Notes under the pieces: model-generated
What the model was told of the DNA's origin: nothing
The model's database searches: none
What the model saw: the letters and a program-made list of their open reading frames with translations, nothing else
Shown here: positions 961 to 20,725 of the stretch, in pieces
Numbering within the stretch: the first letter of the stretch is position 1
How the letters are laid out: each line of letters begins with the position of its first letter
Source: an uncultured Chloroflexia bacterium
GTDB taxonomy: Bacteria; Chloroflexota; Anaerolineae; JAAYZQ01
Direction of reading: 5' to 3'
DNA: 64,000 bases
NCBI GenBank assembly: GCA_963700285.1
Contig: CAVOXA010000007.1
Coordinates: 64,001-128,000, forward strand
Made by a program: the position numbers and the translations under genes

Positions 961-1935
961 GTGGAATTACGGTGGAGCCTGAAGAATAGCATGAAACTGC
1001 AGACAAAGCTTCGCCTGGGCCTGATCGCCCTCCTTGCCCTGCTCGCTGCCCCAATAGCCGCCATTGGCTGCAATTATCTGGGTAAGAGGGCTTCGGGCGA
1101 GGTCGTCATCCTGTCCCTCGGAGTCATCCTGGGAAGCGCAGCAGGTGTCCTCCTGATCTCCCGTTCTGTACTGCAAGCGATGCAGTGCAGACAGCACGAC
1201 CTGGAGGCTCTAAACAACGAACTGTGGGCCACTAACCGCAACTACATGGAGATGCTGGGTTTCGTGGCCCATGAACTCAAGAACCCACTGGCCTCAGCCG
1301 TGATCAGCCTCTACACCGTCAAGGACGGCTACCTGGGAGAGATCACGCCCGGACAGAAGAAAAGCCTGGAGTCGGTAGCTCGCAACCTGGAAGATTTCCA
1401 GGACATGATCCGCAACTACCTGGACCTGTCCCGTCTGGAGAAAGGGGAACTTGCCGTAGCCAAGACCTACTTTCCCCTGCAAACCCGCGTGATCCGGCCG
1501 GTACTGGAAGAGCTGGAAGGCGAACTGCAAAGGCGGCAGATGAGGGTAGAGAATCACATTCCAGAGGGCAGGGTGGTGTATGCCGACGCCAGCCTGCTCA
1601 AGATCGTCTACTGTAATCTGTTGTCAAACGCTGTCAAGTATGGCCTGGAAGCGGGGACAATCCTGCTCGAGTCGCAAGACGGTGACAGCACCCTGATGTT
1701 CAGCGTGCGGAACGACAGTGCCGGTATTCCACAGGACCAGATCCCGCTGCTCTTCCGAAAGTTCAGCCGGTTGTTCAATCCCGAATACGAAGGCAAGCGG
1801 GGCACCGGCCTGGGCTTGTACATTTGCCGGGACATCGTGGAAAAGCATGGAGGCACGATTTGGGTAGATTCTCAGATGGGACAGTGGGTGCAATTCAGTT
1901 TCACCCTGCCAAAGCAGGACGAGGCACAAACGTGA
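961..1935 (+). CDS. Membrane sensor histidine kinase (2 TM, HisKA, HATPase_c); alternative start ATG 991
   Basis: H-box FVAHELKNPL, N-box NLLSNAVKY, G2 box GTGLGL. Confidence 0.92.
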   Translation: MELRWSLKNSMKLQTKLRLGLIALLALLAAPIAAIGCNYLGKRASGEVVILSLGVILGSAAGVLLISRSVLQAMQCRQHDLEALNNELWATNRNYMEMLGFVAHELKNPLASAVISLYTVKDGYLGEITPGQKKSLESVARNLEDFQDMIRNYLDLSRLEKGELAVAKTYFPLQTRVIRPVLEELEGELQRRQMRVENHIPEGRVVYADASLLKIVYCNLLSNAVKYGLEAGTILLESQDGDSTLMFSVRNDSAGIPQDQIPLLFRKFSRLFNPEYEGKRGTGLGLYICRDIVEKHGGTIWVDSQMGQWVQFSFTLPKQDEAQT

Positions 1936-1948
1936 GAGAGGTGGATCG

Positions 1949-2743
1949 ATGAGCGAAAAGAGACAGATTCTGGTAATTGACGACGACGCCCAGTTGGTGG
2001 CTGGGGTCAAGACTCTGTTGGAAAGTGTCGGCTACCAGGTCTACTGCGCCTACCGGCCCAAAGATGGGTTGGCGCTGGCCAGGGAGACGCGGCCGGATCT
2101 GATCGTCATGGACATCCTGTTCGCGGGACCGCCGGGGCCAGACGGTGTGGCAGTCTCGCGGCAGCTTGCCCAGGACCCCGAGCTGAAAGATACGCCGGTG
2201 ATCATCCTGTCTGGGGTGAAGAAGGTGCTGGACATGCCGGTAAAGCTCGGCCCGGATGAGACCTACATGCCGGTGCAAGCGTTTGTGGAAAAGCCCTTCA
2301 AGCCAGAGGAGTTGCTGTCAAAGATCCAGCAAGTGCTGGCCCTTCGAGAATCGGTGAAGGAGGAAGGAAAGGGAAGAATCCTGGTTGTCGACGACGATCC
2401 GGACTTTCTGGCGATCACCACCCGCATTCTGACTGCCGCCGGCTACGAACCTGTGACCGCGGCCAACGGAGCGCAAGCTATGGCTGCCATGCGGCGGCGA
2501 AAGCCGGACCTGGTGTTGCTGGATATCATGATGAGCACCGTGCTGGATGGGCTGGGTGTCAGCGAGGACATGCAAGCCGATGAAGAACTGAAGGATCTAC
2601 CTGTCATCATGGTGTCCTCTATCGCGGAAACAGAGTATGCCGCGGTCTTTCCCACGGATGGCTATGTCCACATGGATGCCTGGATCTCGAAACCGGTCCG
2701 GCCCGATGAACTGCTGCAAAAGATCAGCAGATGTCTGGGATAG
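1949..2743 (+). CDS. Response regulator with two receiver domains and no output domain
   Basis: ILVIDDD...PDLIVMDI...EKP and ILVVDDD...PDLVLLDIMM...SKP. Confidence 0.9.
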   Translation: MSEKRQILVIDDDAQLVAGVKTLLESVGYQVYCAYRPKDGLALARETRPDLIVMDILFAGPPGPDGVAVSRQLAQDPELKDTPVIILSGVKKVLDMPVKLGPDETYMPVQAFVEKPFKPEELLSKIQQVLALRESVKEEGKGRILVVDDDPDFLAITTRILTAAGYEPVTAANGAQAMAAMRRRKPDLVLLDIMMSTVLDGLGVSEDMQADEELKDLPVIMVSSIAETEYAAVFPTDGYVHMDAWISKPVRPDELLQKISRCLG

Positions 2744-2785: not shown

Positions 2786-3367
2786 ATGACGATGAACCAT
2801 GACCGAGTTGATCTGACCGGGCCGGCACTCGAGCGCGACTTTGTGGCTACGCTGAGCCCGGCAGGGGAGACCCTACGTACATGCATGCAGTGTGGCTCGT
2901 GCACGGCCACCTGCGCCAGCGCCTACGCCATGGACTATACGCCCAGACAGATCTGGCACATGGCCCGGCTGGGCATGAAAGACGAGGTGCTCAACAGCAA
3001 GACGTTGTGGCTGTGCAGCACCTGCTACTCCTGTACGCTGCGCTGTCCCCGCGATCTGCCTCTGACCGAGACCATCGGCACTCTGAAGCGAATGGCGGAG
3101 CGGGAGGGCATCCGGGGCTATAAGGAGAGCCGCTACTTCTACCGGGCCTTCATGGAAACGGTGCGGCGCTACGGGCGCACCAACGAAGTGGAGATCATGG
3201 TCCGCTACTTTCTGACCACGAACCCGTTTCTGGCCGTCGAGTACGTGCCATTGGCGCTGGCCATGCTCCGTCACAGCAAGGTGCCCCTCAGCCTGCCCAA
3301 GGTCGCCGGCCCGGGCAAGCTGGACCGGCTGTTCGCCCGGGTCGAGGAATTGGAGGGTGAGCGATGA
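2786..3367 (+). CDS. hdrC: Heterodisulfide reductase subunit C
   Basis: CMQCGSCTATC and CSTCYSCTLRCP ferredoxin motifs, MDYTPRQ; GGAGG RBS before ATG 2786/2792; stop overlaps the hdrB start. Confidence 0.9.
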   Translation: MTMNHDRVDLTGPALERDFVATLSPAGETLRTCMQCGSCTATCASAYAMDYTPRQIWHMARLGMKDEVLNSKTLWLCSTCYSCTLRCPRDLPLTETIGTLKRMAEREGIRGYKESRYFYRAFMETVRRYGRTNEVEIMVRYFLTTNPFLAVEYVPLALAMLRHSKVPLSLPKVAGPGKLDRLFARVEELEGER

Positions 3368-4224
3368 AGGAATACGCCTACTTTCCCGGCTGCTCCCTGG
3401 AGAGCACGGCCAAGGAGTATGACCTCTCCGCCCGGCTGGTGATGCGCGAGCTGGGAGTGGAGCTGTTAGAACTTGAGGATTGGAACTGCTGTGGAGCCAG
3501 CGCCGCCGAGATCAGGAGCCACCTGCTCGCCTTGGTGCTGCCTGCTCGCAACCTGGCTCTGGCCGAACAGATGAACGGCAACGGTCAGCTTGTAGCCAGT
3601 TGCAGCGCCTGCTATGTCAATTTGCGCAAGGTGGAGGAGACGGCCAGGGCGAACGCAGCCATGCTGGGCACCATCAACCAGGCGCTGGAGGTGGATGGTC
3701 TGACCTACGCCGGCAGGATGCATGTGCGTCACCTGCTGGACGTCATCGCCAACGATGTAGGCCCGGAGGCCATCGCCGCGCGGGTGAGGAGGCCGCTGCA
3801 GGGACTGCGCGCGGCGCCCTACTATGGCTGCCAGACGGTCCGTCCCTACAGCCCCTTCGACGTCCCCTATTTCCCCGAGACGATGGACAGGGTGCTGGCC
3901 GCCATGGGCGTGCAGGTTCACCCCAACCCCCTGAAAGCGGCTTGCTGTGGGGGCACCCTATCGACCACCAAACGCGAGGTAGGGCTCAAGCTGGTGAGTG
4001 ACCTGTTCCGCGCCGTGGAAGGGGCGGACTGTATTGTCACCGTCTGTCCCCTGTGCCAGATGAACCTGGAGTCGTACCAGGGGCAGGTGTCGAAACAGCT
4101 CGACCAGCCGCTAAACATGCCGGTCGTGTACCTGACCCAGCTCTTGGGGCTGGCCTTTGGCTTGCCGGAGCAGGAGTTGGGGCTAAAGCACAACATCGTG
4201 CCCCTCAAGCTGACGGAGGTTTGA
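3364..4224 (+). CDS. hdrB: Heterodisulfide reductase subunit B (two CCG domains)
   Basis: YFPGCSL, WNCCGA, SCSAC, YYGCQ, ACCGG, VCPLCQMNL, YLTQLLGLA. Confidence 0.93.
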   Translation: MKEYAYFPGCSLESTAKEYDLSARLVMRELGVELLELEDWNCCGASAAEIRSHLLALVLPARNLALAEQMNGNGQLVASCSACYVNLRKVEETARANAAMLGTINQALEVDGLTYAGRMHVRHLLDVIANDVGPEAIAARVRRPLQGLRAAPYYGCQTVRPYSPFDVPYFPETMDRVLAAMGVQVHPNPLKAACCGGTLSTTKREVGLKLVSDLFRAVEGADCIVTVCPLCQMNLESYQGQVSKQLDQPLNMPVVYLTQLLGLAFGLPEQELGLKHNIVPLKLTEV

Positions 4225-4226
4225 GC

Positions 4227-5072
4227 ATGGATGACATCAAGATCGGAGTCTACATCTGCCAGTGTGGAGTGAATATCGCCAGCGTGGTGGACGTGGCCGA
4301 CGTGGCCCGCTTTGCCAGTGGGTTGCCCCACGTGGCGGTTGCCCGAGACAGCAAATACACCTGTGCCGAGCCAGGACAAAAGATGATCAGACAGGACATC
4401 CAGGAGTTGGGCATCAACCGCGTGGTCGTGGCCTCGTGCACACCGCGGATGCACGAACTCACGTTTCAGGGTGTGCTGGAGGAAGCGGGTCTGAACCCCT
4501 ACTTCTTTGAGATGGCCAACATTCGCGAGCACGTTGCCTGGATCAGCAAGGACACAGCCAAGGCCACGGCCAAGGCCAAGCGCCTGGTCAGTGCCGCAGT
4601 GGCCCGCGTGGCTCTGCAGCAGCCGCTCCAGGCCCGGCGCGTGCCGGTCGCCGACAAAACGCTGGTGGTCGGGGGCGGCATTGCCGGCATTCAGGCCGCG
4701 CTGACCATCGCCAACGCTGGCTACCACGTCTACTTGGTGGAGCGAGAGCCGGCCATCGGCGGCTACATGGCCCAACTGGACAAAACCTTCCCCACCCTGG
4801 ACTGTGCCACCTGAATTCTGGGCCCCAAGATGATGGATGCCGGTCGGCATCCCAACATTGAGCTCTTGACCTGGAGTGAGGTGGAGGAGGTTTCCGGCTA
4901 CGTGGGCAATTTCAAGGTGCGGGTCCGCAAGAAGGCCCGCTACGTGGACGAGAGCAAGTGCACCGGCTGCGGCGTGTGCTGGACCGAGTGCCTGACGCGG
5001 CGCATCCCGCAGTTCAAGCAGATTGAGAAAGGTGCGTTGCGCTTTGGGGAGAGGAGGCCAGGCGAGCGATGA
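4227..5072 (+). CDS. hdrA: HdrA N-terminal half, predicted selenoprotein (Sec at codon 196, TGA 4812-4814), 281 aa
   Basis: IGVYICQCG, VVVASCTPRMHE, GGGIAG FAD motif, LDKTFPTLDCAT-TGA-ILGPKM in frame with ORF 4830-5072; ends after one CxxCxxCxxxC. Confidence 0.9.
4830..4858 (+). promoter_or_regulatory. Bacterial SECIS-like hairpin within hdrA
   Basis: GGATGCC-GGTC-GGCATCC (4835-4852), a 7-bp stem with a GGUC loop starting 28 nt after the UGA; imperfect lower stem ATGATG/CAACAT. Confidence 0.8.
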
Positions 5073-5548
5073 ACGCGCAGCGTGTGGACGAGATCATCGA
5101 CAACTATGAGGCCGACCGGACCTGTACCCTGGCCATCCTGCAGGACGTGCAAGCTGAATACAAGTACCTGCCCCGCGAGGCTATCATCCAGACGGCCAAC
5201 CGGCTGGGCGTCACGCTGGGCGAGGTCTACCAGATGGCGACCTTCTTCCGGGCCTTTAGCCTGGAGCCCAAGGGCGACTATACCATCAGGGTGTGCATGG
5301 GCACAGCTTGCCACGTACGCGGCGCGGTCCAGATCCTGGAGCAGTTCGAGCGCGATCTGGGCATCAGGGCTGGCGAGACGTCACGCGACCGCAGGTTCTC
5401 TCTGGAAGTGGTCATGTGCTTGGGCGCCTGCGCCCTCGGCCCGGTGGTGGTCGTCAACGAGGAAACGCACGGCGAGATGTCGCCCGACAAGGCGCACGCG
5501 CTCGTGGCCGAGTTGACGGATGGGGGCGACGGGAGGGAAGGGTCATGA
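5069..5548 (+). CDS. NuoE/HydC-like thioredoxin-fold [2Fe-2S] subunit
   Basis: [34 protein letters not shown]; ATGA overlaps with both neighbours. Confidence 0.92.
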
Positions 5549-7326
5549 GCGAAACAAGGACCATAACTGTCTGTCAGGGGACCGGTTGCGAGTCGCACCG
5601 CTCCGGGCAGCTGCGGATGATGCTGGAGGCGGAGGTGGCCCGGTTGGATCTGCCGTGCCAGGTTAAACGTACTGGCTGTCATGGCTTGTGCGAGCGTGGC
5701 CCCATCGTCACGGTGGAGCCAGATGGCATCCTCTACCTCAAAGTGCAGCCCAAGGATGTGCCCGACATCGCCAAGTCGCTGGAGAACGGCGACCTGGTGA
5801 AACGGCTGCTGTACCGCGACCCGGTGACCAAAAAGCCGGTGCCCTACTACAAGGACGTGGACTTTTACAGCAAGCAGACGCGGCTGGTGCTGCGCCACAA
5901 CGGGCATATCGACCCTGAGTCGATCGATGATTATGTGGCTGTGGGCGGCTACCAGGCGCTGCGCAAGGCCCTGCAGGAGATGACGCCACAGCAGGTCGTC
6001 GCCGAGGTCAGGGATTCCGGCCTCAGGGGGCGGGGCGGGGCCGGGTTCGTCACCGGACTGAAGTGGGAGTTCACCCGCAAGGCCCCCGGCGAGATCAAGT
6101 ACATCATCGCCAACGGCGACGAGGGCGACCCCGGCGCTTTCATGGATCGCAGCATCATGGAGGGAAACCCCCACAGTGTCATCGAGGGGATGCTCATCGG
6201 CGCCTACGCGGTGGGTGCTCAGGAAGGTTATATCTATGTCCGCAACGAGTACCCGATGGCTGTCCAACGCCTGCGCCTGGCCATCGAGAAGGCGCAGGAG
6301 CGTGGCCTTCTGGGCGAAAACATCCTGGGCTCTGGTTTTGCCTTTTCCGTCAAAATCGTGCGCGGGGCAGGGGCCTTTGTCTGCGGCGAGTCGAGCGCGC
6401 TGATGGCCTCGGTGGAAGGCCGCGTCGGCGAGCCGCGCCCCAAGCACGTCCACGCCACCCACAAGGGCCTGTGGGACCAGCCCACGGCGTTGAACAACGT
6501 CGAGACCTGGGCCAACGTGCCGGCGATCATTGACCGCGGCTCCGACTGGTACGCGAGCTATGGCACCGCCCGCAGCAAGGGCACCAAGGTCTTTTCGCTG
6601 GTGGGTAAGATCAAAAACACCGGCCTCATCGAGGTGCCGATGGGCACGCCGCTGCGCGAGATCATCTATGACGTCGGCGGCGGCCTCCTCAAGGATCGGG
6701 CGTTCAAAGCGGTGCAAACCGGCGGGCCATCGGGCGGCTGCCTTCCGGCCGGCCTGCTGGATCTGCCGGTGGACTTTGAGCGGTTGGCCGACGCCGGTTC
6801 GATGATGGGTTCCGGCGGCATGATCGTCATGGACGAGCGCAATTGCATGGTCGATGTGGCCCGGTACTTTGTGGATTTTCTCAAGGAGGAGTCGTGCGGC
6901 AAGTGCACGGCCTGCCGCGAGGGCATCAAACAGATGCTCGAGATCCTGACCGCCATCACCAAGGGTGAGGGACAGGAAGGGGACGTCGAGCTGTTGGAGG
7001 AGTTGGGTGCGGTCGTGCAGCAGACCTCGCTGTGCGGACTGGGCAAGTCGGCGCCCAACCCGGTCCTGTCTACCATCCGCTACTTCCGGGATGAGTACGA
7101 TGCCCACATTCGCGAGCAGCGGTGCCCGGCCGGTGTCTGCCGGGCGCTGATCACCTTTGCCATCGACCCTGACCTGTGCAAGGGCTGCACGATCTGCGCC
7201 CAGAAGTGCCCGCAGGAAGCGATCTCCGGCGAGCTAAAGCAGATCCACGTTATCGACGATGCCAAGTGCATCCGCTGTGGAGTCTGCCGCGAAGTCTGCC
7301 CGTCGGATGCGGTGCTGGTGCACTGA
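5545..7326 (+). CDS. NuoF/HydB-like FMN- and NAD(H)-binding subunit with N-terminal [2Fe-2S] and C-terminal 2x[4Fe-4S]
   Basis: CQGTGC...[78 protein letters not shown]. Confidence 0.93.
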
Positions 7327-7341
7327 TGCGGAGGAAAGAAC

Positions 7342-9138
7342 ATGATCAACTTGACGATAGACGGCCAACCTTTCAAAGCTGACGAAGGGCAGACTATCCT
7401 GGAGGTCGCCCGGCGGGCAGGCGTCAAGATCCCGACGCTGTGCTACCATCCCGCCCTGGAGCCCTATGGCGCCTGCCGCCTGTGCACGGTCGAGATCCGC
7501 TGGGGCCGGCGCTCATCGTTGGAAACGGCCTGTACCTATCCCGTGCGCGAGGGGATTGAGGTGCTGACCAAGTCCGAGGCCGTACGGGCGACAAGGCGCA
7601 TGATCCTGGAGCTGATGCTAGCCCGCTGTCCCAATGTGCCGGTGATCCAGGACCTGGCCCGCGAGTATGGCATCGAGAAATCCCGCTTCAAGACCGAGGA
7701 CCCGGACGAGGACTGCATCCTGTGCGGCCTGTGCGTGCGGGTCTGCAACGAGCTGGTGGGTGCAGGGGCCATCAACTTTTCGGAGCGAGGCATCAGCCGC
7801 GTCATTGGCCCGCCATTCCTGGAGACGAGCGACGCCTGCATCGGCTGTGGGGCGTGCGCCCTGGTCTGTCCGACCGGCGCAATCCGCATCCTGGACGAGG
7901 CGGCAGCCATCTACGAGGCGCTGCCGCTGGGGCCAACCTCGGCCATCCACGTGCCATCGCTGCAGGCGGTACCACGGGTGCCGGTCATCGACACCGATGC
8001 CTGCATCCACTTCCGCACGAGGGATCTGGGTATGGTCGATGGCTGTGGGGTGTGCCAGACGCTCTGCGAGGTGGAGGCCATCAATTTTGACGTGGAAGAC
8101 GAGTTCCTGGATCTGGAGGTGGGCGCCATCATTCTGGCCACCGGCTTTGCTAACTTTGATCCCGGCAAACTCGACCAGTATGCCTACGGTCGCTCGCCCA
8201 ATGTCATCAGCGGCATCGAGTTTGAGCGGATGTCCAACTCGGCCGGGCCGACGGGCGGCGAGATCCTGACCGCCGACGGCAAGCGGCCGGAGCGGGTGGC
8301 CATCATCCACTGCGTGGGCAGCCGCGACAAGGCCGGCGCGGCCGCCGGAAACAGCAACGAGTACTGCTCGCGTGTATGCTGTATGTACGCCTTGAAACAG
8401 GCCCACCTGGTGCGTGACAAGACCGACGCCGAGGTATTCGAGTTCTACATGGACATGCGTACTTTTGGCAAGGGCTACGAAGAGTTCTACGAGCGCATCC
8501 AGGAGGAGGGCGTGATCTTTGTTCGAGGCCGGGGCACGGAGGTCATGGTCGAGAAGGATGGCCGGCTGACCGTCAAAGCCGAGGACACCAACCTGGGGCA
8601 GCCTGTATCGGCCACTGTGGACATGGTCATCCTGGGTGCGGGCATCGTACCCCAGGCCGATACCGCCGACGTGGCCCAGACCTTTGGCATCAGCCGCAGC
8701 CCCGATGGCTTTTTCATGGAGGCCCACCCCAAGCTGCGGCCCTTCCACACCAACACCGATGGTGTGTTCCTGGCCGGTGCTTGTCAGGCCCCGCGCGATA
8801 TACCCGACACGGTGGCTCACGCCAATGCCGCGGCCGCGGAGGCCCTGGCCCTGATGTCCGCTGGCGAGGTGACCATTGCCCCGACGACCGCCTGGGTCGA
8901 CGAGAACCTATGCTCAGGCTGCAAGACCTGCCTGGATCTGTGTCCCTACAAGGCCATTTCGTACATCTCTCGAAACGGTACCGGCGTGGCCGAGGTGAAT
9001 GAGGCACTGTGCAAGGGCTGTGGCACCTGTGCCGCTGCCTGCCCGGCTGGGGCTATCACTGCCCAGCACTTTACGGGTGCCCAGATCCTGGCCCAGATCG
9101 AGGGGCTGTTCCGGGTAGGACAAGGAGTGACGATATGA
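7342..9138 (+). CDS. Fusion of NuoG/HydA-like N-terminal Fe-S domains with the C-terminal half of HdrA
   Basis: IPTLCYH...GACRLC...AC, CILCGLCVRVC, CIGCGACALVCP, then HdrA motifs AIHVPSLQAVP, GAIILATG, EFER, HCVGSRD, YCSRVCCMYALKQA, HPKLRP, GVFLAGACQAPRDI and a C-terminal ferredoxin. Confidence 0.9.
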   Translation: MINLTIDGQPFKADEGQTILEVARRAGVKIPTLCYHPALEPYGACRLCTVEIRWGRRSSLETACTYPVREGIEVLTKSEAVRATRRMILELMLARCPNVPVIQDLAREYGIEKSRFKTEDPDEDCILCGLCVRVCNELVGAGAINFSERGISRVIGPPFLETSDACIGCGACALVCPTGAIRILDEAAAIYEALPLGPTSAIHVPSLQAVPRVPVIDTDACIHFRTRDLGMVDGCGVCQTLCEVEAINFDVEDEFLDLEVGAIILATGFANFDPGKLDQYAYGRSPNVISGIEFERMSNSAGPTGGEILTADGKRPERVAIIHCVGSRDKAGAAAGNSNEYCSRVCCMYALKQAHLVRDKTDAEVFEFYMDMRTFGKGYEEFYERIQEEGVIFVRGRGTEVMVEKDGRLTVKAEDTNLGQPVSATVDMVILGAGIVPQADTADVAQTFGISRSPDGFFMEAHPKLRPFHTNTDGVFLAGACQAPRDIPDTVAHANAAAAEALALMSAGEVTIAPTTAWVDENLCSGCKTCLDLCPYKAISYISRNGTGVAEVNEALCKGCGTCAAACPAGAITAQHFTGAQILAQIEGLFRVGQGVTI

Positions 9139-9575
9139 TCGACAACGGCTTCGAACCAAGAATCGTCGGGTTCCTATGCAACTGGTGCACGTACGCGGCC
9201 TCCGATGGGGCGGGCGTAGCCCGCATGCAGCAGCCGCTGAACGTGGACATTATCCGGGTGATGTGCTCTGGCCGGATCGAGCCCGCTTTTATCCTGAAGG
9301 CCTTTGCCGAGGGGGCCGACGGCGTCATCGTCTCGGGCTGCCATCCGCCGGGCGACTGTCACTACACCGACGGCAACTACAAGACCTTCCGCCGCATGCC
9401 GCTGGTCGAGGCGTTGCTGGCGCAGTCTGGCATCGAGCCCGGCCGCTTTCACTGGGGCTGGATCTCGGGGGCGGAGGCGCCCAAGTGGGCCGGGCTGGTG
9501 CGTGATTTCACCGCGCAGGTGCGCGCCTTGGGGCCGCTGAATTGGCAGCACGAGCTGGCGAGCAAGGAGGACTAG
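9135..9575 (+). CDS. mvhD: Methyl-viologen-reducing hydrogenase subunit D ([2Fe-2S]), Cys form
   Basis: FEPRIVGFLCNWCTY, RVMCSGR, GADGV, GCHPPGDCHY; ATG 9135 overlaps the upstream stop. Confidence 0.93.
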   Translation: MIDNGFEPRIVGFLCNWCTYAASDGAGVARMQQPLNVDIIRVMCSGRIEPAFILKAFAEGADGVIVSGCHPPGDCHYTDGNYKTFRRMPLVEALLAQSGIEPGRFHWGWISGAEAPKWAGLVRDFTAQVRALGPLNWQHELASKED

Positions 9576-9577
9576 CC

Positions 9578-10552
9578 ATGACCACCAACGGAAAGCTGAA
9601 GCTGGGTCTCTACTGGGCAGCCTCGTGTGGCGGTTGCGACATCGCCATCGTCGAGCTCCGGGAAAAGATCCTGGATCTGGACGCAGCGGCCGATATCCTG
9701 TTCTGGCCGTGCGCCATGGATTTCAAATACAAGGACGTCAGGGCCATGGTCGAGGGGCAGATGGACGTCTGCCTGTTCAATGGCTCCATCCGCAGCACCG
9801 AGAACGAAGAGATGGCACACCTGCTCCGGGAGAAAGCCAAGGTTTTGGTCGCCTTTGGCTCCTGCGCCCACGAGGGTTGCATTCCCGGGCTGGCCAATCT
9901 CTTTGACCGGCAGTCGATCTTGGCGCGAGTCTACCTGGAGACACCCTCGACCGAGAACCCGCAGGGCATTTTGCCGCAGACGAGCTACCGGATGCCCGAG
10001 GGCGAGGTGCACATCCCCAAGTTGTTTACTACGGTCAAGACGCTGGACCAGGTGACAGAGGTGGATTACTATGTGCCCGGCTGCCCACCGCAAGCGCCGC
10101 AGATCTGGGCCGTACTCGAGGCGATCCTGGGGGGCAACCTGCCGCCCAAGGGCAGCGTGGTGGGCGCCACTGAAAAGACGGTTTGCGACGAGTGCAAACA
10201 CGTCCGCGAGGAGAAGCGCATCACCCGCTTCTACCGGCCCCACGAGATCATTCCCGACCCGGAGCGCTGCTTGCTTGACCAGGGCATCATCTGCGCCGGG
10301 CCGGCAACGCGGGGCGGCTGCGGGGCGCTCTGTCCCACGGTAAACATGCCCTGCCGGGGTTGCTACGGCCCGCCGCCAAACATCGTTGACCAGGGCGCGG
10401 CATTGCTCTCGGCTGTGTCTTCGGTGGTGGCCGCCGACACGGAGGAGGAAGCAGCCCGCATCGTGGGGCAGATTGTGGACCCGGTGGGGACGTTTTACCG
10501 CTTTGGGCTGCCGGCATCGCTGCTCCACCGTGCAAAGCTTGTGGATTCGTAG
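9578..10552 (+). CDS. mvhG: Group 3c [NiFe]-hydrogenase small subunit
   Basis: WAASCGGC, GSCAHEG, PGCPP, VCDEC, CLLDQGIICAGPATRGGCGALCP, PCRGCYG. Confidence 0.92.
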   Translation: MTTNGKLKLGLYWAASCGGCDIAIVELREKILDLDAAADILFWPCAMDFKYKDVRAMVEGQMDVCLFNGSIRSTENEEMAHLLREKAKVLVAFGSCAHEGCIPGLANLFDRQSILARVYLETPSTENPQGILPQTSYRMPEGEVHIPKLFTTVKTLDQVTEVDYYVPGCPPQAPQIWAVLEAILGGNLPPKGSVVGATEKTVCDECKHVREEKRITRFYRPHEIIPDPERCLLDQGIICAGPATRGGCGALCPTVNMPCRGCYGPPPNIVDQGAALLSAVSSVVAADTEEEAARIVGQIVDPVGTFYRFGLPASLLHRAKLVDS

Positions 10553-10613
10553 ATCTGGAGAACCGGCTGGATGAATCTCGGATCACGAATCTACCTACCC
10601 GCAGGAGGATACT

Positions 10614-12086
10614 ATGCAAAAGATTAGCATTGACCCGATCACCCGCCTGGAGGGGCACGGCAAGATCGACATCTTTCTCGACGAGGAAGGCAACGTGGCC
10701 AACGCCTACCTGATCATCCCCGAGCTTCGCGGCTTTGAGAAATTCGCCGAGGGCCGGCCAGTAGAAGAGATGCCGCGTATCACACCGCGCATCTGTGGCG
10801 TCTGCCCCGAGGCGCACCACATGGCCTCGGCCAAGGCTTGCGACGCCGTCTACCACGTCGAGGTGCCGCCGGCGGGCAAAAAGCTGCGCGAGCTGCTTTA
10901 CTCGGCCTTCTACGTGGCCGACCACACCGTCCACTTTTACATCTTGGCCGCGCCCGATTTTGTGCTGGGGCCAGACGCCCCACCTGCCGAGCGCAACATC
11001 CTGGGCTTGATCCACAAGGTCGGCGTGGACGTCGGCAAGCAGGTTATCGAGAGCCGCGGAAAGGCCATGGACATCATCGGTCTGTTGGGCGGCAAGACTA
11101 TCCATCCTGTGGGCGCGCTGCCCGGCGGGGTGAGCAAATCGATCAACGAGGAGGAGCGGGCCGGGATCGAGAGCTGGGGCCACGATTTGGTGGGCTTTGG
11201 ACTGTTCAGCCTCCAACTCTTCAGGGATGTGGTGCTGGGCAACAAGGCCTATCTGGACCTGATCCTGTCCGACGCTTACACGACGCCGATGTATTATATG
11301 GGTCTGGTGGACGGGGACAACAAGGTCAACTTTTACGATGGGAAGGTGCGCGTCGTGGACCCTGAGGGCAAAGAACTGGTCAAGTATGGCCCAGAGGAGT
11401 ACCTGGAGGTCGTCGCCGAGCACGTCGAGCCTTGGACCTATCTCAAGTTCCCCTACCTCAAGCAGGTAGGCTGGAAGGGGTTTGTCACCGGCAAGGACAG
11501 CGGGGTCTACCAGGCGACGCCCCTGTCGCGGCTCAATGCCGCCGATGGCATGGCCACGCCCGAAGCCCAGGCGGCCTACGAAGAGTTCTACACGACGATG
11601 GGCGGCAAGCCGGTCCACGGCACGCTGGCCACCCACTGGGCGCGCCTCATCGAGCTGCTCTACGCCGCCGAGCGCCTGGTCGAACTGGCCACCGATCCTG
11701 GCATCACCGACCCGCACGTGCGCAACATCCCCACCGCCATACCGACCGAGGGCGTGGGCATCGTCGAAGCGCCGCGCGGCACGCTGACGCACCACTTTGT
11801 CACCGACGAGCGGGGCATTGTCCAGAAATGCAACCTCATTGTCGGCACGACCAACAACTATGCGCCCATCTCCATCTCGATCAAGAAAGCGGCCGAGGCC
11901 TTTATCCACAAGGGCCAGGTCCTGACCGAGGGCATGCTGAACCGGGTGGAGATGGCCTTCCGCGCCTACGACCCCTGTTTCGGTTGCGCCACCCACACGC
12001 TGCCGGGCCAGATGCCGCTGGAGGTGCGGGTGTGCGACGCGGAGGGGTGCGTGGTCGAGGTGCTATGTCAGCATCTGGGCAAGTAG
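10614..12086 (+). CDS. mvhA: Group 3c [NiFe]-hydrogenase large subunit
   Basis: TRLEGHG, L1 RICGVC, EAPRGTL, L2 DPCFGCATH followed by a cleavable C-terminal tail. Confidence 0.94.
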
Positions 12087-12143
12087 GGTGACGGGGGATT
12101 GGGAGATCCAGATCTCCCGATCCCCCAGATAGGTGAGTTCCCC

Positions 12144-12674
12144 ATGAAGAAGCTGGTCCTCGGCCTGGGAAATCCAATCCTGACGGATGACGGCGCCGGC
12201 ATCCACGTGGTGCGGGCTGCGGCCGCCCGCTGCGCGCCGGCGGACGGCGCGACCTTTGCCGAGGCGAGCCTGGGTGGCCTGCGGCTCCTGGATTTGCTGG
12301 CCGGCTACGACCGGGCCATCGTGGTGGATGCAATCCAGACGCGCGGCGGGCAGCCAGGCGCCCTCTACCGGCTGGGCCCCGGCGACCTGCGAGCCTCCCT
12401 GCACTCCGGCTCCAGCCACGACCTGTCGCTGCCGGCCGCCCTGGACCTGGGCCGGCGGCTGGGCATGGCGCTGCCCGGCGAGGAAAACCTGATCCTCCTT
12501 GCCATTGAGGTCGAGGATGTGCTGACCTTTGGCGAGACCTGTACCCCCGCCGTGACGGGGGCCATCCCCCAGGCTGTGGAGGCGGTACTGGCGGAACTGG
12601 CGGTTCAGCCGTGGGCCGCTGAGGTGCGGCCGGACTGGCAATGTTTCCCGCGGGCAGGGCATAACTCGACATAA
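12144..12674 (+). CDS. Hydrogenase maturation endopeptidase (HycI/HybD family)
   Basis: LVLGLGNPILTDDGAG, IVVDA, SSHD; follows mvhA. Confidence 0.9.
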   Translation: MKKLVLGLGNPILTDDGAGIHVVRAAAARCAPADGATFAEASLGGLRLLDLLAGYDRAIVVDAIQTRGGQPGALYRLGPGDLRASLHSGSSHDLSLPAALDLGRRLGMALPGEENLILLAIEVEDVLTFGETCTPAVTGAIPQAVEAVLAELAVQPWAAEVRPDWQCFPRAGHNST

Positions 12675-15922: not shown

Positions 15923-16963
15923 TTGGGTGGAACCAGTCAGCGCAAAACTGCATACCTGACGCTTGAAGAATTGACTGCGGACCGAGAGCTGGCACGGCGT
16001 CTTCCGCTTGATCTGGCCTGGAGTTGCCATGCCCTGCCGTTGGCGGAGGATAATGGACGTGTCACAGTCGTCATGGCCGACCCGGATGATGACAGGGCGC
16101 GTGAGGCGGTGGTTGCCGCGTTGGGACCCAGGTTGTGTGTGGTCAAGGGATCACCGTTGAGTATTGAGGCGCGACTCGCCGAAATCTGGGGGGATGAAGC
16201 TTGTCGTCGTCCAAGACTAGAAGTCTGTGCTTTTCCTGATCCCCTTCCTGGCGAGCTGTGGGACTATGCCCAGGCTCTTGGGGTCTTGCTGGGTGCGCAC
16301 CTGGGCCGCATGAGTACGGCAGGAGAGGTGAACGCACTGGCCAAGGAAGGGGGTCGCGCCAACTCCGACCTGGTCATTTTGGGGGAGTATTGTCATCCTC
16401 TGCTCCGGTGTTTGCTCTCCCGATCGACTGAGGACGGTGATTTGCCGATACTGCAGAGCGCTGTTCCTTTTGGCATCCTGGTAGCTCAGCGGCCGCGCTG
16501 GCCGCTCGAACGCATCCTCCTGGTCATCTGTGGTGAAAGCGCAGACAACGGGGCGGTGGATTGGGCCTTGCGCCTGGCCAGCCCAAGCACCGCTGCTGTC
16601 ACCGTGCTGGCGGTGATACCACCGGTGCCGATCATGGTGCACGGACCTGCCCGCCGGGAACAGGGTATGGCTGCCTTCCTGACCAGCAACACGATTCTGG
16701 GAAGGCAAATGCACCAAGTAGCCCGGCGTTTGGCAGAGTGCCAAGTCGACGGCACCTTGCGCTTGCGCCAGGGAGCACCCGACCAGCAGATCTGTCGACA
16801 GGTGGTTGAGGGCGACCACGATCTGATCATTATGGCCGCCAGGCCCCGCAAATGGTGGTTGCGCCAACTGAAGGGAGACCCAATCTGCTCACTGCTGAGC
16901 CAGGTCGACCGGCCCGTGCTCTTTGCGGAACCAGACAAGGCGGGGAAGTCCGACCCGACATGA
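15923..16963 (+). CDS. Universal stress protein with an N-terminal GSPII_N/T2SSE_N-like domain
   Basis: LARRLPLDLAWSCHALPLAEDNGRVTVVMADP at the N-terminus; RILLV...DLIIMA...RPVL USP at the C-terminus; GGAGG RBS before TTG. Confidence 0.7.
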   Translation: MGGTSQRKTAYLTLEELTADRELARRLPLDLAWSCHALPLAEDNGRVTVVMADPDDDRAREAVVAALGPRLCVVKGSPLSIEARLAEIWGDEACRRPRLEVCAFPDPLPGELWDYAQALGVLLGAHLGRMSTAGEVNALAKEGGRANSDLVILGEYCHPLLRCLLSRSTEDGDLPILQSAVPFGILVAQRPRWPLERILLVICGESADNGAVDWALRLASPSTAAVTVLAVIPPVPIMVHGPARREQGMAAFLTSNTILGRQMHQVARRLAECQVDGTLRLRQGAPDQQICRQVVEGDHDLIIMAARPRKWWLRQLKGDPICSLLSQVDRPVLFAEPDKAGKSDPT

Positions 16964-17047
16964 CTTCCGCGCCAGCACTGTCGTCTAAAAGGGAGCCGCA
17001 GAGCAGTGTCTGCGGCCCTTCTGTCACTTGACAATGGGGAGATAACC

Positions 17048-18031
17048 ATGCAGATGCAAAGCAGAATCAAAAAAGTCCTGCTCACCCTGCTGACCGTTGG
17101 CTTGGTGATACTTGCTGCCGGCTGCGGTGGATCCACCGGTGAGTCAATGGCCTCGTCAGAGGGTGGACTACAGGGCACCATCACTGTTTCCGGCGCCTGG
17201 GCGCTCTACCCTCTGATGGTTCGATGGGGCGAAGAGTTTCAGAAGCTGCACCCTGACGTTCGCTTTGACATCTCGGCCGGCGGGGCAGGCAAGGGAATGG
17301 CCGATGTCCTGGCAAACGCAGTGGACATTGGGATGGTTTCCCGCGAAATCCACCCCGAAGAGGTCGCAAAGGGCGCCTTCTGGGTGTCGGTCACCAAAGA
17401 CGCCGTATTTCCCACGATCAATGCAGAGAATCCCGTACGGGAGGAGTTGTACGGCAAAGGGTTGAGCCAAGAGATCTTGATCGGCATCTTTATCACAGGC
17501 GAGATCACAACCTGGGGGCAGGTGATAGACAGGCCAGAGGTGACAGACCCCATCCACGTCTTTACCCGCTCAGATGCCTGCGGGGCAGCAGACACCTGGG
17601 CCGATTACTTGGGCAAGGCACAGGAGGATCTCCTGGGCATTGCTGTTTACGGCGACCCCGGTCTCCTGGGCGCGGTGATCAAAGATCCTCTGGGAATTGG
17701 CTTCAACAACCTGAACTATGCCTTCGACGCCGAGACAGGAATCCCGGTGGCTGGCGCAGGGGTCGCGCCGATCGATGTTGACGGCAACGGCTCGGCCGAA
17801 GCGAAAGAGGTTTTTGATACCAAAGACCAGGCGGTGAAGGGCGTCGCTGTGGGGGATTATCCCTCGCCGCCAGCGCGCGACCTCAACCTGGTCAGTCAGG
17901 GCAAACCGGAAGGACTGGTCAAAGCCTTCATCACCTGGGTCCTCACCGATGGGCAGGATTATGTAGCCGAGGCAGGGTACATCACCCTGCCCCAGGACAG
18001 ATTGCAGGCAGAGCTGGAAAAGCTGGACTGA
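17048..18031 (+). CDS. pstS: Phosphate ABC transporter substrate-binding lipoprotein
   Basis: Lipobox LAAGC, ITVSGAWALYP, SAGGAGKG, DIGMVSR; upstream of pstCAB. Confidence 0.9.
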   Translation: MQMQSRIKKVLLTLLTVGLVILAAGCGGSTGESMASSEGGLQGTITVSGAWALYPLMVRWGEEFQKLHPDVRFDISAGGAGKGMADVLANAVDIGMVSREIHPEEVAKGAFWVSVTKDAVFPTINAENPVREELYGKGLSQEILIGIFITGEITTWGQVIDRPEVTDPIHVFTRSDACGAADTWADYLGKAQEDLLGIAVYGDPGLLGAVIKDPLGIGFNNLNYAFDAETGIPVAGAGVAPIDVDGNGSAEAKEVFDTKDQAVKGVAVGDYPSPPARDLNLVSQGKPEGLVKAFITWVLTDGQDYVAEAGYITLPQDRLQAELEKLD

Positions 18032-18061
18032 ATCGGTGCCGAGGCCCACAAAGTGAGAGCG

Positions 18062-19066
18062 ATGCACAGCATGAATGAGATTCTGACGTCCCTGGTTCAA
18101 TACCGGCCACAGGCTTCGAGCCAGGTTGTCTCCCACAGGCACGCTCGGCGGAGGAAGGATCGACTGTCGGCGCGGTTGATGGGTTTGCTGACGCTGGCGA
18201 CCATGCTGATGGTGCCCCTTCTGGCCGTGGCGCTCTTTATGCGCGCCCGGCCGATCCTGCTGGCCAAACCGCTGGGGGAGTTGTTGTTGTCCACGGACTG
18301 GCACCCGCTGAGGGGGGAATTTGGCTTTTTGCCCTTCATCATGGGCACCCTCTGGGTAACGGGCGTGGCCATGGCCATCGCTGTCCCCCCTGCCCTGCTG
18401 GTCGCCATCTACCTGGCCGAATACGCCCCAGCGCGGTTCCGCACGCTGGTCAAGCCGTTCATTGACCTGCTGGCAGGCATACCATCCGTGGTCTTTGGCG
18501 TCTGGGGGATGCTGACCATTGTGCCCTTTGTGGAACATACCGTCGCCCCCACCCTGAATCGGTGGCTGGGTGTTCTCGGTCTGTTCCGCACCGACAACCC
18601 CACCGGCTATGGCGTGCTGGCGGCGGGGCTGGTACTGGCCGTGATGATCTTGCCCATTATCATCGCCGTGGGCGACGAGGTGATCAGGGCCGTACCCCAG
18701 GGGTTTCGTGAGGCATCGTGGGCCTTGGGCGCGACCCGCTGGCAGACGATCATAAAGGTGGTGCTGCGGCGGGCCTGGCCCGGCGTGATGGCGGCCGTAG
18801 TCCTGGGCTTTTCCCGAGCCTTTGGCGAAACAATGGCCGTGTTGATGGTCGTGGGCAACGTACCCCAGATGCCTCACTCCCTCTTTGATGCGGCCTACCC
18901 CTTGACCGCCCTGATCGCCAACAACTATGGGGAGATGATGTCCATCCCCCTCTATGATGCAGCGCTGCTGGGTGGGGCCTTGATCTTGTTGTTGATCGTG
19001 TTGGTCTTTAACACCGCCTCGCGGCTGGTGCTTGTGCGGTTCGTGCAAACTGGACAAGAGAGATGA
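18062..19066 (+). CDS. pstC: Phosphate ABC transporter permease
   Basis: DLLAGIPSVVFG, EASWALGAT, SRAFGETMAV; start codon uncertain (18053/18062/18071). Confidence 0.92.
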   Translation: MHSMNEILTSLVQYRPQASSQVVSHRHARRRKDRLSARLMGLLTLATMLMVPLLAVALFMRARPILLAKPLGELLLSTDWHPLRGEFGFLPFIMGTLWVTGVAMAIAVPPALLVAIYLAEYAPARFRTLVKPFIDLLAGIPSVVFGVWGMLTIVPFVEHTVAPTLNRWLGVLGLFRTDNPTGYGVLAAGLVLAVMILPIIIAVGDEVIRAVPQGFREASWALGATRWQTIIKVVLRRAWPGVMAAVVLGFSRAFGETMAVLMVVGNVPQMPHSLFDAAYPLTALIANNYGEMMSIPLYDAALLGGALILLLIVLVFNTASRLVLVRFVQTGQER

Positions 19067-19936
19067 AGAGCCGAAAAGCAAAGGCTTTCTCCCGCAGAAA
19101 GATAGAGGAAGGTTTCTTCAAAGTGCTGATGATCGGTTCGGCCGTCGCCGTGATGGGCAGCCTGATCCTCATCCTGGCCACCGTGGTCTGGCGAGGTCTA
19201 CCCGCCCTGAACCTGGCTATGCTGACCCAGACCCCCAAAGGGGGGTACTATCTGGGCAAAGAGGGCGGTATCCTCAACGCCATTGTTGGCTCTATCTACC
19301 TGGCCGGTGGGGCGACGGTCCTGGCCTTGCTCACCGGCTTGCCCATTGCCATTTACTTGCAGGTCTACGCGGCCCACTCCCGTAGTGCCGAGCTAGCCCG
19401 TCTGGCTCTGGATGTCCTGTGGGGGGTACCCAGTATTGTCTATGGAGCTTTTGGCTTCATCATCATGCTTGGGCTGGGAATGCGGGCTTCGCTGCTGGGG
19501 GGCATCATCACCCTCGCCCTATTGGAATTACCCATCATGGTCAGGGGCATGGACGAGGCCATCGCCATGGTTCCACCTGCGCTGAAAGAAGCCTCCTATG
19601 CCCTGGGCGCCAACCGGCTGGAGACGGCGACCAAGGTGGTGATACGGCAGACGGCGCCGGCATTGCTCACGGCGATCTTGCTGGCCTTTGGCCGGGGCAT
19701 CGGTGACGCGGCGGCGGTCATGTTCACGGCCGGCTACACCGACCGCCTGCCCGACTCTCTCTTCGAGCCCGGCTGCCTCGCTGCCGTTGGCCGTCTTTTT
19801 CCAGCTCGGCACTCCCTTTCCAGCCGTACAGGAGCGGGCCTACGCCTCTGCACTGGTACTGACCTGTATCGTCCTGGGACTCAGCCTGATCTCGCGGCGG
19901 CTGGCCGGGCGGCTAACCAAGCATGTGGTCCGGTAG
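19063..19936 (+). CDS. pstA: Phosphate ABC transporter permease with a frameshift near 19765
   Basis: [24 protein letters not shown]; the C-terminus [14 protein letters not shown]...AYASAL lies in another frame ending at 19936. Confidence 0.85.
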
Positions 19937-19948
19937 GAGGTGCGAAGC

Positions 19949-20725
19949 GTGTCGGAGCCCCAGATTCGGATTGAAGACCTGAACGCCTGGTACGGAAGCG
20001 AGCAAGCTCTGAAAGACATCACCGTCGGCATTCCGGCCCGGCAGATCACGGCCATTTTTGGTCCCTCGGGTTGTGGCAAGACAACGCTTCTCCGGAGTCT
20101 CAACCGGCTCCTGGAGGAGGCCGACGGGACCCGGGTGACGGGTCAGGTTTGGCTGGATGGCATGGCCATTTATGGCCGTGGCGTTGACCTAACCGAGGTT
20201 CGCACCCGGATTGGCATGCTGGCCCCCAAGCCCTTTCCCCTGCCGATGTCCATCTATGACAACGTGGCCTATGGGCGGCGCATCCGCGGCCTGCAGGGAC
20301 ACTTGGACAAAGGAAACGGCCGCAACCTGGACCGGATCGTGAAACACTACCTGCAGGCGGCTGGATTGTGGGAGGAAGTGAAGGACCGGCTGCGCGCACC
20401 CGCCTCGGGACTGTCCACCGGGCAGCAGCAGCGCCTGTGCCTGGCGCGTGCTTTGGCCGTGGAGCCGGAGGTGCTGCTATGCGACGAGCCAACATCCGCC
20501 CTGGACCCGATCTCGGCGCAACGGATCGAAGAGCAGCTCGTGACCCTCAAGGAGCAGATGACGATTGTCGTGGTCACACACTCGCTGCAGCAAGCGCGCC
20601 GCCTGGCCGACCACGTGATCTTTCTCTGGATGGGGGAGCTGGTGGAATCCGGACCTGGTACGCAGGTATTTCACGCCCCAAGGGATGAGCGCACCCAGGC
20701 TTATCTGGCGGGCGACGTCGGTTGA
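19949..20725 (+). CDS. pstB: Phosphate ABC transporter ATPase
   Basis: [30 protein letters not shown]; start GTG 19940 or 19949. Confidence 0.93.

Follow-up and report, generated by a model that had tools for sequence, protein, structure and literature searches.

The closest described systems to the locus considered here are the MvhAGD-HdrABC complexes of methanogens (PDB 5ODC and 8RVU; PMC12350162, PMC9012536), together with intact bacterial hdrA-mvhDGA operons (our loci L035, L036, and L081). In the Mvh-Hdr structures, as set out in passages of these two papers, electrons enter at the C-terminal ferredoxin of HdrA and MvhD, and the low-potential exit lies at the inserted ferredoxin, which is the docking site of FmdF or MvhB. 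The operon examined here lies on the plus strand, at positions 2786-12674, of a 64,000-nucleotide stretch of a contig from an uncultured Chloroflexia bacterium (CAVOXA010000007.1, positions 64,001 to 128,000; the window). Its gene order is hdrC, hdrB, hdrA-N, nuoE, nuoF, nuoG'::hdrA-C, mvhD, mvhG, mvhA, and a maturation protease gene, with hdrABC and mvhDGA all in one cluster, as in MvhAGD-HdrABC. While HdrA is a single polypeptide in that system, here it is two open reading frames (ORFs) 2.3 kb apart in which all four domains are present in sum. Judged from alignment, the break in HdrA falls within its inserted 2[4Fe-4S] ferredoxin, with one of the two cysteine motifs on either side, and a NuoEFG-like module occupies the cut.

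The cut is placed between these motifs because the two halves complement an intact paralog except for 9 loop residues. The N-half aligns to residues 1-257 of 5ODC HdrA and ends 26 residues past CTGCGVCWTEC, while the HdrA sequence restarts at LGPTSAI (nt 7927, fusion residue 196; about 268-651 in 5ODC) within a 598-aa ORF (7342-9138) whose residues 1-183 match the N-termini of HoxU, HydA, and NuoG. The linker between this head and the HdrA half is about 20 residues. Against the intact paralog in L036 (662 aa), the halves span residues 2-259 and 269-653, and only loop residues 260-268 are left uncovered. An earlier note on this DNA had HdrA stopping at 5072 after the first inserted-ferredoxin motif and resuming at about 7925 in a NuoG/HydA-headed protein, with complete nuoE-like and nuoF-like genes between the halves and most junctions formed by ATGA overlaps or short gaps. 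The alignment of both halves to HdrA that it proposed, run against 5ODC and the L036 paralog, maps the split where the note had put it, provided that the in-frame TGA discussed below is read through; both enclosed genes are complete (Table 1), and the 9 gene junctions comprise 4 ATGA overlaps and 5 gaps of 2, 15, 2, 61, and 57 bp.

In the 2[4Fe-4S] ferredoxin fold, the ligands of each cluster come from both cysteine motifs, and because of this ligation pattern each inserted-ferredoxin cluster would have to draw on the cysteines of both HdrA chains. All four motif-1 cysteines are invariant in the 33 aligned N-halves despite their nearness to the chain end, and the new C-terminal tail that follows them is itself conserved (W56, P65, I70, and G73 in the numbering of alignment A2). 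In 121 aligned fusions, the motif-2 cysteines C235, C238, and C242 are present in every case and C221 in 120. All 121 also keep the four HA4 cysteines, a Lys at the position of 5ODC K409, and a Glu at that of 5ODC E356, to which we presume a functional role, and the HdrA segments EFER and MYALKQA are present in the window. The Lys is named a hallmark of bifurcation in the part of the class II benzoyl-CoA reductase (BCRII) preprint that treats it (bioRxiv 10.64898/2026.04.10.717634).

The N-half reaches position 5072 only if a TGA at 4812-4814, which the earlier note overlooked, is read as selenocysteine (Sec). This codon sits at the site equivalent to Cys197 of 5ODC, a site that holds either TGA (18) or Cys (29) in all 47 split N-halves compared. 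The genome carries selA, selB, and tRNA-SeC, and a hairpin resembling a selenocysteine insertion sequence (SECIS) begins 20 nt past the TGA; its z of -1.4 is weak alone, and a compensatory change from C-G to T-A is found in L022, L023, and L125. The TGA is likely to encode selenocysteine. Since Cys197 is described in PMC9012536, in the section concerned, as a ligand to the N-terminal cluster of the partner HdrA, this residue likely ligates the low-potential shuttle cluster.

The inserted genes resemble a bifurcating Bfu module. The best PDB matches of NuoF are the B subunits of bifurcating Wor-, NiFe-, and FeFe-Bfu enzymes (822-672 bits), with complex I reaching at most 400 bits. NuoF carries GAFM, FVCGE, and GGPSGG segments, which we take to be diagnostic of Bfu-type NuoF. 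It has the B1, B3, B4, and B5 ligands and the flavin mononucleotide (FMN)/NAD core, and at the B2 site (C438, C476 or Thr, H525, C531, and C536 in 7T2R) the alignment gives C434, Thr, H521, C527, and C532, that is, four of the five residues plus the common Thr (definitions as in sections of PMC9304861). NuoE, the BfuC subunit, carries the ligands of the C1 [2Fe-2S] cluster. The fusion head, which has no C-terminal catalytic or docking domain, finds its best PDB match in WorA (9MQX_A) and shows A1, A2, and A4 without A3, the motif set of a Type 2 BfuA; the A3 motif is absent from 240 of 240 head homologs. In Type 2 Bfu, the third substrate is fed through A4 by other subunits (PMC9304861, same sections), and in WorA a C-terminal helix docks a partner whose donor cluster is 10.7 A from A4 (passages of PMC12318220). 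In the fusion, half of HdrA stands where the C-terminal part of WorA would be. The module differs from the N-module of respiratory complex I in that its NuoF falls below the TIGR01959 cut-off and is longer, its G subunit is a 183-aa head, and it has no nuo neighbors. As far as aligned positions can tell, the HdrA and NuoEF-head modules both keep their known bifurcation-related residues, and the reading in the earlier note of retained EFER, MYALKQA, and GAFM segments and of extra NuoF clusters typical of bifurcating HydB is borne out (all three segments, the B3, B4, and B5 ligands, and the Bfu-type matches).

This arrangement recurs widely. In a junction-spanning protein search with the window fusion, 119 of the 120 proteins listed extend across the entire junction (61-92% identity); the sources named are Anaerolineae, Chloroflexi, Thermoflexales, and Chloroflexia, and a search from a divergent member listed 120 further proteins named Ignavibacteria and Bacteroidetes. 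The named carriers are Chloroflexota, Ignavibacteria, and Bacteroidetes, and every named match is a metagenome-assembled genome. A junction pattern scan that covered 11 of 64 metagenome-set parts listed 120 loci, of which 76 were kept (longer than 1.5 kb, with three human-gut-labeled loci excluded); 48 of these carry the junction and, with 21 genome-derived loci and the window, make up 70 junction-bearing sequences. The nuoG'::hdrA-C junction is thus seen in 69 loci besides the window, and the order hdrA(N)-nuoE-nuoF-nuoG::hdrA(C), for which the earlier note proposed searching genomes, appears in full in 46 of the 70, 45 of them elsewhere. The remaining rows are L077 (nuoE-nuoF-hdrA-N-nuoG'::hdrA-C), L131 (neither nuoE nor nuoF in the gap), and 22 that by their coordinates end too early upstream to show the N-half. 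These counts are not independent events, because some loci are near-copies of one another. Because the junction recurs in 69 other loci, misassembly is removed as an explanation of the layout in general, and the split layout is not an assembly accident. Of 41 related genomes, 5 (this one among them) are listed with the full-length fusion and 10 with a shorter tandem-HdrA type; a scan of 2 of the 64 parts of the genome-contig set gave 1 full-junction locus among 35, and a phylum search was positive for 6 of 401, an undercount since 9 candidates were scored per genome.

Comparison among the loci points to a slot whose contents vary. In an HdrA FAD (flavin adenine dinucleotide)-domain tree (HdrA-C segment, 117 rows, quick method), of which we use the nesting pattern alone, intact HdrAs with the canonical loop and HdrAs with an NfnB-like insertion nest within the split clades; a NuoF tree (65 rows, 5 free references, quick method) does not cleanly separate the simple from the tandem types. 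This same genome contains an operon of hdr and electron-transferring flavoprotein (ETF) genes (L080, G000:C15:235631-238411) that is syntenic with L031, L025, L029, L032, and L033 and has an NfnB-like insert in its HdrA exactly where those relatives have nuoE-nuoF-nuoG', and the proteins flanking the slot are 62-91% identical in L031. On inspection, NfnB within one HdrA chain, the HdrL or HdrA-NfnB arrangement, is found in this paralog and not in the window operon, whose insert is of the NuoE/F/G type and interrupts the chain. Of the 65 rows listed with their downstream genes, 28 have mvhG behind the fusion, and L023, L097, and L099 have FdhAB-type genes there.

The module itself also varies. 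The short, ferredoxin-ended NuoF is kept in 54 of the 65 loci with nuoF in view. A long NuoF, with a C-terminal extension replacing the ferredoxin end, is found in L075, L076, L105, L111, L133, L147, L152, and L153, the extension being an NfnB/GltD-like domain in L105, and such an extension may turn the complex into an NAD/NADP-linked machine with three flavins. Of the 46 full-order loci, 8 have more than 3 kb of additional genes separating hdrA-N from nuoE; this block of about 3.8-4.1 kb holds hydrogenase-operon accessory genes (L089, L092, L101, L104, L111, L113, L139, and L152) and in L113 includes an [FeFe]-hydrogenase-like Fe-S protein and an HATPase. The presence of accessory genes inside the split hdrA suggests insertion of a hyd-type operon block. 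The gap between nuoE and nuoF exceeds 250 bp in 32 of the 55 loci with nuoE in view, and those inspected hold a gene of 120-130 aa, presumably HydD-like, with no counterpart in the window operon. At L077:7688-13934, the two halves are adjacent, with the module genes upstream and a tandem HdrA behind the head; a single-chain N+G+C reading of this locus was rejected, as its N-half is a separate 175-aa ORF. L131:5396-11922 lies downstream of ETF-like genes and a CCG-domain protein.

HdrA-N, NuoE, NuoF, and the fusion would likely assemble with HdrBC and MvhDGA as one complex. The two HdrA halves would re-associate, each inserted-ferredoxin cluster being completed by cysteines of both chains. By analogy with the Mvh-Hdr structures, electrons from H2 would reach the FAD by way of MvhAG, the C-terminal ferredoxin, and MvhD, with formate as an alternative donor entering via MvhD. 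One electron would then leave through HdrC and HdrB to a high-potential acceptor, putatively a disulfide for which DsrC is a candidate, and the other would pass through the N-terminal shuttle cluster, with its likely Sec ligand, to the inserted ferredoxin. There the tethered A4 cluster of BfuA would accept electrons in place of soluble ferredoxin or FmdF/MvhB, and BfuBC would divide them between NAD+ and ferredoxin (Fd). We infer that Bfu takes up low-potential electrons at A4 because the input arm of the complex is complete and the exit is the inserted ferredoxin. The net reaction would be 4 H2 + 2 RSSR + NAD+ + 2 Fd(ox) -> 4 RSH + NADH + 2 Fd(red), reversible in principle, with H2 uptake as the preferred physiological direction. 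We put the probability of this series wiring, in which two bifurcating sites are joined through the low-potential arm of HdrA during H2 uptake, at roughly 60%. The proposal in the earlier note that the NADH module sits at the low-potential ferredoxin arm within one complex stands as to the graft in the inserted ferredoxin and the retained bifurcation residues, while the complex itself is a prediction.

An equilibrium sketch illustrates what such wiring could achieve. With potentials of -140 mV for the disulfide, -280 mV for NAD, and -500 mV for ferredoxin (taken from sections of PMC9304861), the series arrangement would equilibrate at about 1 Pa H2; the corresponding values are 68 Pa when Mvh-Hdr acts by itself and 16,000 Pa for a reaction of the HydABC type. 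The genome (draft, 89% complete, 6.5% contamination) contains acetyl-CoA synthase, and MetF beside hdr genes; we regard both as relevant context because they need NADH and reduced ferredoxin. Neither rnfC nor an [FeFe]-hydrogenase was found in this 89% complete genome. A DsrC-type protein with both C-terminal cysteines (G000:C10:781755-782057) is present despite dsrA not being found, and a two-cysteine DsrC is a candidate substrate of HdrB and high-potential acceptor.

Several observations weigh against the series wiring. No dsrA was found at this completeness. With an acceptor near -280 mV the H2 advantage of the series would shrink, to 80-220 Pa, the series itself then equilibrating at about 220 Pa. 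In the only solved complex of HdrA with Bfu, that of BCRII, the part of the preprint describing it gives Bfu as input, not output (bioRxiv 10.64898/2026.04.10.717634). In the Ignavibacteria-type clade, the Arg after the conserved Glu is replaced. In a single-chain fold model of the fusion, the head is predicted with confidence, but the linker and domain orientation are not (pTM, the predicted template modeling score, 0.46; residues 186-211 with pLDDT, the score predicted for the local distance difference test, below 50), so the model does not fix the orientation of head to HdrA, and contact of A4 with the HdrA clusters is a prediction. A single mechanism is also strained by the 8 of 65 loci in which the nuoF match ends early and is followed by an extension of 1.3-1.5 kb, by L131, which combines a split HdrA and a NuoG-like head with no nuoE or nuoF in the gap, and by L039 and L158, which have no mvhD behind the fusion and no adjacent same-strand Mvh genes.

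The same wiring could serve the reverse physiology, with Bfu merging the electrons of NADH and reduced ferredoxin and the HdrA FAD then joining these to electrons from a high-potential donor (thiols or ETF) to release H2 or formate during fermentation or syntrophy. Either module can in principle run backward, a genome in which no [FeFe]-hydrogenase was found may need a route that evolves H2, and ETF genes flank both L131 and the tandem-HdrA type; however, the characterized Mvh-Hdr is an H2-uptake enzyme in the descriptions consulted, and the Wood-Ljungdahl genes form a sink for NADH and ferredoxin, though that pathway can run oxidatively. We think this direction unlikely, though worth keeping in mind. 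A little less probable still is that NuoEF acts as a plain NAD(H) diaphorase, leaving HdrA as the sole bifurcating site, its low-potential arm reducing NAD(P)+ or NADH feeding its FAD. That the same slot accepts an NfnB-like NAD(P)H domain, that the C-terminus of NuoF is altered in eight loci, and that BamGHI is largely reduced by NADH alone (68%, in the part of bioRxiv 10.64898/2026.04.10.717634 that reports it) would all fit such a role, but the window NuoF retains B3, B4, B5, and B2-site features that non-bifurcating homologs are without, and 54 of the 65 loci keep the short ferredoxin-ended form.

The head might instead fold away from the inserted ferredoxin and feed the input side, at the C-terminal ferredoxin or MvhD, as a second donor beside H2. 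This would match the solved BCRII wiring as the preprint presents it, and it would suit both the unresolved linker of the fold model and the two loci without adjacent mvhD or Mvh genes. Yet the last ligand of A4 is tethered immediately ahead of the ferredoxin half, the input arm is already occupied by Mvh or Fdh in many loci, and the adaptor that BCRII is described as using is an enlarged MvhD type, whereas the window MvhD has 146 aa; we give this geometry little credence. Although the genome is a contaminated draft, an assembly error or dead insertion is scarcely credible given the junction in 69 other loci and full order in 45, the invariant catalytic residues, and the conserved new tail of the N-half. 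The series wiring with H2 uptake remains the reading that we prefer.

Table 1. Features of the hdr-nuo-mvh operon, in window coordinates.
Feature	Position	Strand	Details	5ODC residues
hdrC	2786..3367	+	two CxxCxxCxxxC motifs	
hdrB	3364..4224	+	two CCG domains; Cys 10, 42, 43, 80, 83, 156, 194, 195, 228, 231	
hdrA N-half	4227..5072	+	281 aa including Sec; N-terminal cluster domain, first part of FAD domain, first half of inserted ferredoxin, conserved split-specific tail	
In-frame TGA	4812..4814	+	HdrA Cys197 site; likely selenocysteine	
SECIS-like hairpin	4835..4852	+	7-bp stem, GGUC loop	
First CxxCxxCxxxC of inserted ferredoxin	4959..4991	+	CTGCGVCWTEC	C246-C256
nuoE/hydC/bfuC	5069..5548	+	[2Fe-2S] ligands C76, C81, C117, C121	
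nuoF/hydB/bfuB	5545..7326	+	593 aa; thioredoxin-like [2Fe-2S] domain, FMN/NAD core, B1, B2-site residues, C-terminal 2[4Fe-4S]	
Fusion head	7342..7890	+	Type 2 BfuA-like; A1 [2Fe-2S], A2 and A4 [4Fe-4S]; no A3 motif	
hdrA C-half	7927..9138	+	same ORF as head; remaining FAD domain with HA4 cysteines, E295, K352; C-terminal 2[4Fe-4S]	
Second inserted-ferredoxin motif	8002-8067	+	C221, C235, C238, C242 of fusion	
mvhD	9135..9575	+	adaptor, 146 aa	
mvhG	9578..10552	+	hydrogenase small subunit	
mvhA/vhuA-type	10614..12086	+	[NiFe] large subunit; C61/C64 and C455/C458	
Maturation protease gene	12144..12674	+	hydrogenase maturation	

Directly upstream of the operon, on the same strand (window 961-2743), inspection shows histidine-kinase-like and double-receiver response-regulator-like ORFs, which may be regulators of the operon; a promoter and terminator scan gave a result no better than chance. 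Further out, universal-stress-type proteins and a pstSCAB-like phosphate transporter (1-822, 15923-16963, and 17006-20725) are recognized from sequence inspection. Elsewhere in the genome, two near-identical hdrC-hdrB-tandem hdrA-mvhD blocks (G000:C10:1001876-1006848 and C15:239672-245213), with largely the same match scores, represent either a duplication or assembly redundancy. A separate nuoEFG module followed by formate-dehydrogenase-like ORFs, similar to Fdh-Bfu on inspection, lies at G000:C1:64769-69924, and a second [NiFe] large-subunit homolog at G000:C10:562506-563766 is in two pieces in different frames, possibly through a frameshift.

Databases label the fusion "heterodisulfide reductase subunit A" or "4Fe-4S binding protein," and metabolic reconstructions miss it because of these generic labels. 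If the series wiring is correct, it could explain how uncultured sediment bacteria obtain low-potential electrons at very low H2, and it offers a possible route to the role of bacterial Mvh-Hdr clusters. The donors proposed here, H2 and formate, are simple and easier to assay, and natural intact, NfnB-inserted, and Bfu-inserted orthologs provide ready controls.

Set beside the known systems, the window operon shares with MvhAGD-HdrABC the six subunit types, the FAD-site Lys and Glu, the HA4 ligands, both ferredoxin domains, and the Cys197 site, and its MvhA is 80-86% identical to that of intact-type neighbors. It departs from that complex in having HdrA on two chains, with the inserted ferredoxin divided and Bfu tethered where FmdF, MvhB, or ferredoxin dock, and in a host where the methanogen substrate pair of coenzyme M and coenzyme B is not expected. 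Type 2 BfuABC enzymes, notably WorABCSL (PDB 9MQX; parts of PMC12318220 and PMC9304861), give the best PDB matches for NuoF and the head and share A1, A2, and A4 without A3, but the zinc finger and docking helix described for WorA are replaced by half of HdrA; in the sections and searched supplement of PMC9304861, no Hdr- or Mvh-linked Bfu class appears besides Bam. In Desulfotignum phosphitoxidans, nuoEFG likewise stands beside mvhD and hdrA, in nuoEFG-mvhD-hdrA clusters that PMC4046663 reports as neighboring whole genes, the passages concerned mentioning neither split nor nesting. HdrA with an NfnB-like insertion (HdrA9-11 of ANME-1, passages of PMC9012536; HdrL-like proteins, passages of PMC12142623) places a pyridine-nucleotide flavin module between the same two motifs and has been proposed to hold two bifurcation sites, but it is one continuous chain whose module is an NfnB-type FAD domain, not an FMN module of three genes, and its insertion point lies about 20 residues further on than the window split, after the PQAxP segment.

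A parallel in architecture is BCRII, Bam[(BC)2DEFGHI]2 (bioRxiv 10.64898/2026.04.10.717634; "Bam-Bfu" in PMC9304861), which, in the parts of these sources that describe it, likewise joins HdrA-type and HydBC-type flavin modules and uses an MvhD adaptor, a coexistence of two flavin modules that its authors call previously unreported. There, however, BamGHI stands apart and delivers electrons via BamF to the C-terminal ferredoxin, and the inserted ferredoxin feeds BamBC, whereas in the window the fusion joins Bfu to the inserted ferredoxin, a hydrogenase takes the input arm, and a tungsten subunit is missing from the operon; none of the BamB tungsten subunit, BamC, the fused HdrA dimer BamE, or an enlarged BamF is among its ten genes. 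Two bifurcation modules in one complex are thus already known, from BCRII and from the HdrA-NfnB of ANME-1. Grafting Bfu onto HdrA's low-potential arm by way of a split gene appears to be new, as a literature search, short of the HdrA classification review and some supplements, turned up no description of a split, nested HdrA-NuoEFG form. A more tentative proposal, which we hold at somewhat less than even odds, is that the inserted ferredoxin is an exchangeable socket, built here from two polypeptides and holding a whole Bfu, such that bifurcation feeds into bifurcation in a mirror image of BCRII and would enable sediment bacteria without Rnf or HydABC to draw both NADH and reduced ferredoxin from only a few pascals of H2. 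Only one solved complex joins two kinds of bifurcation module, and a design with Bfu on the output would be the second, wired in the opposite sense.

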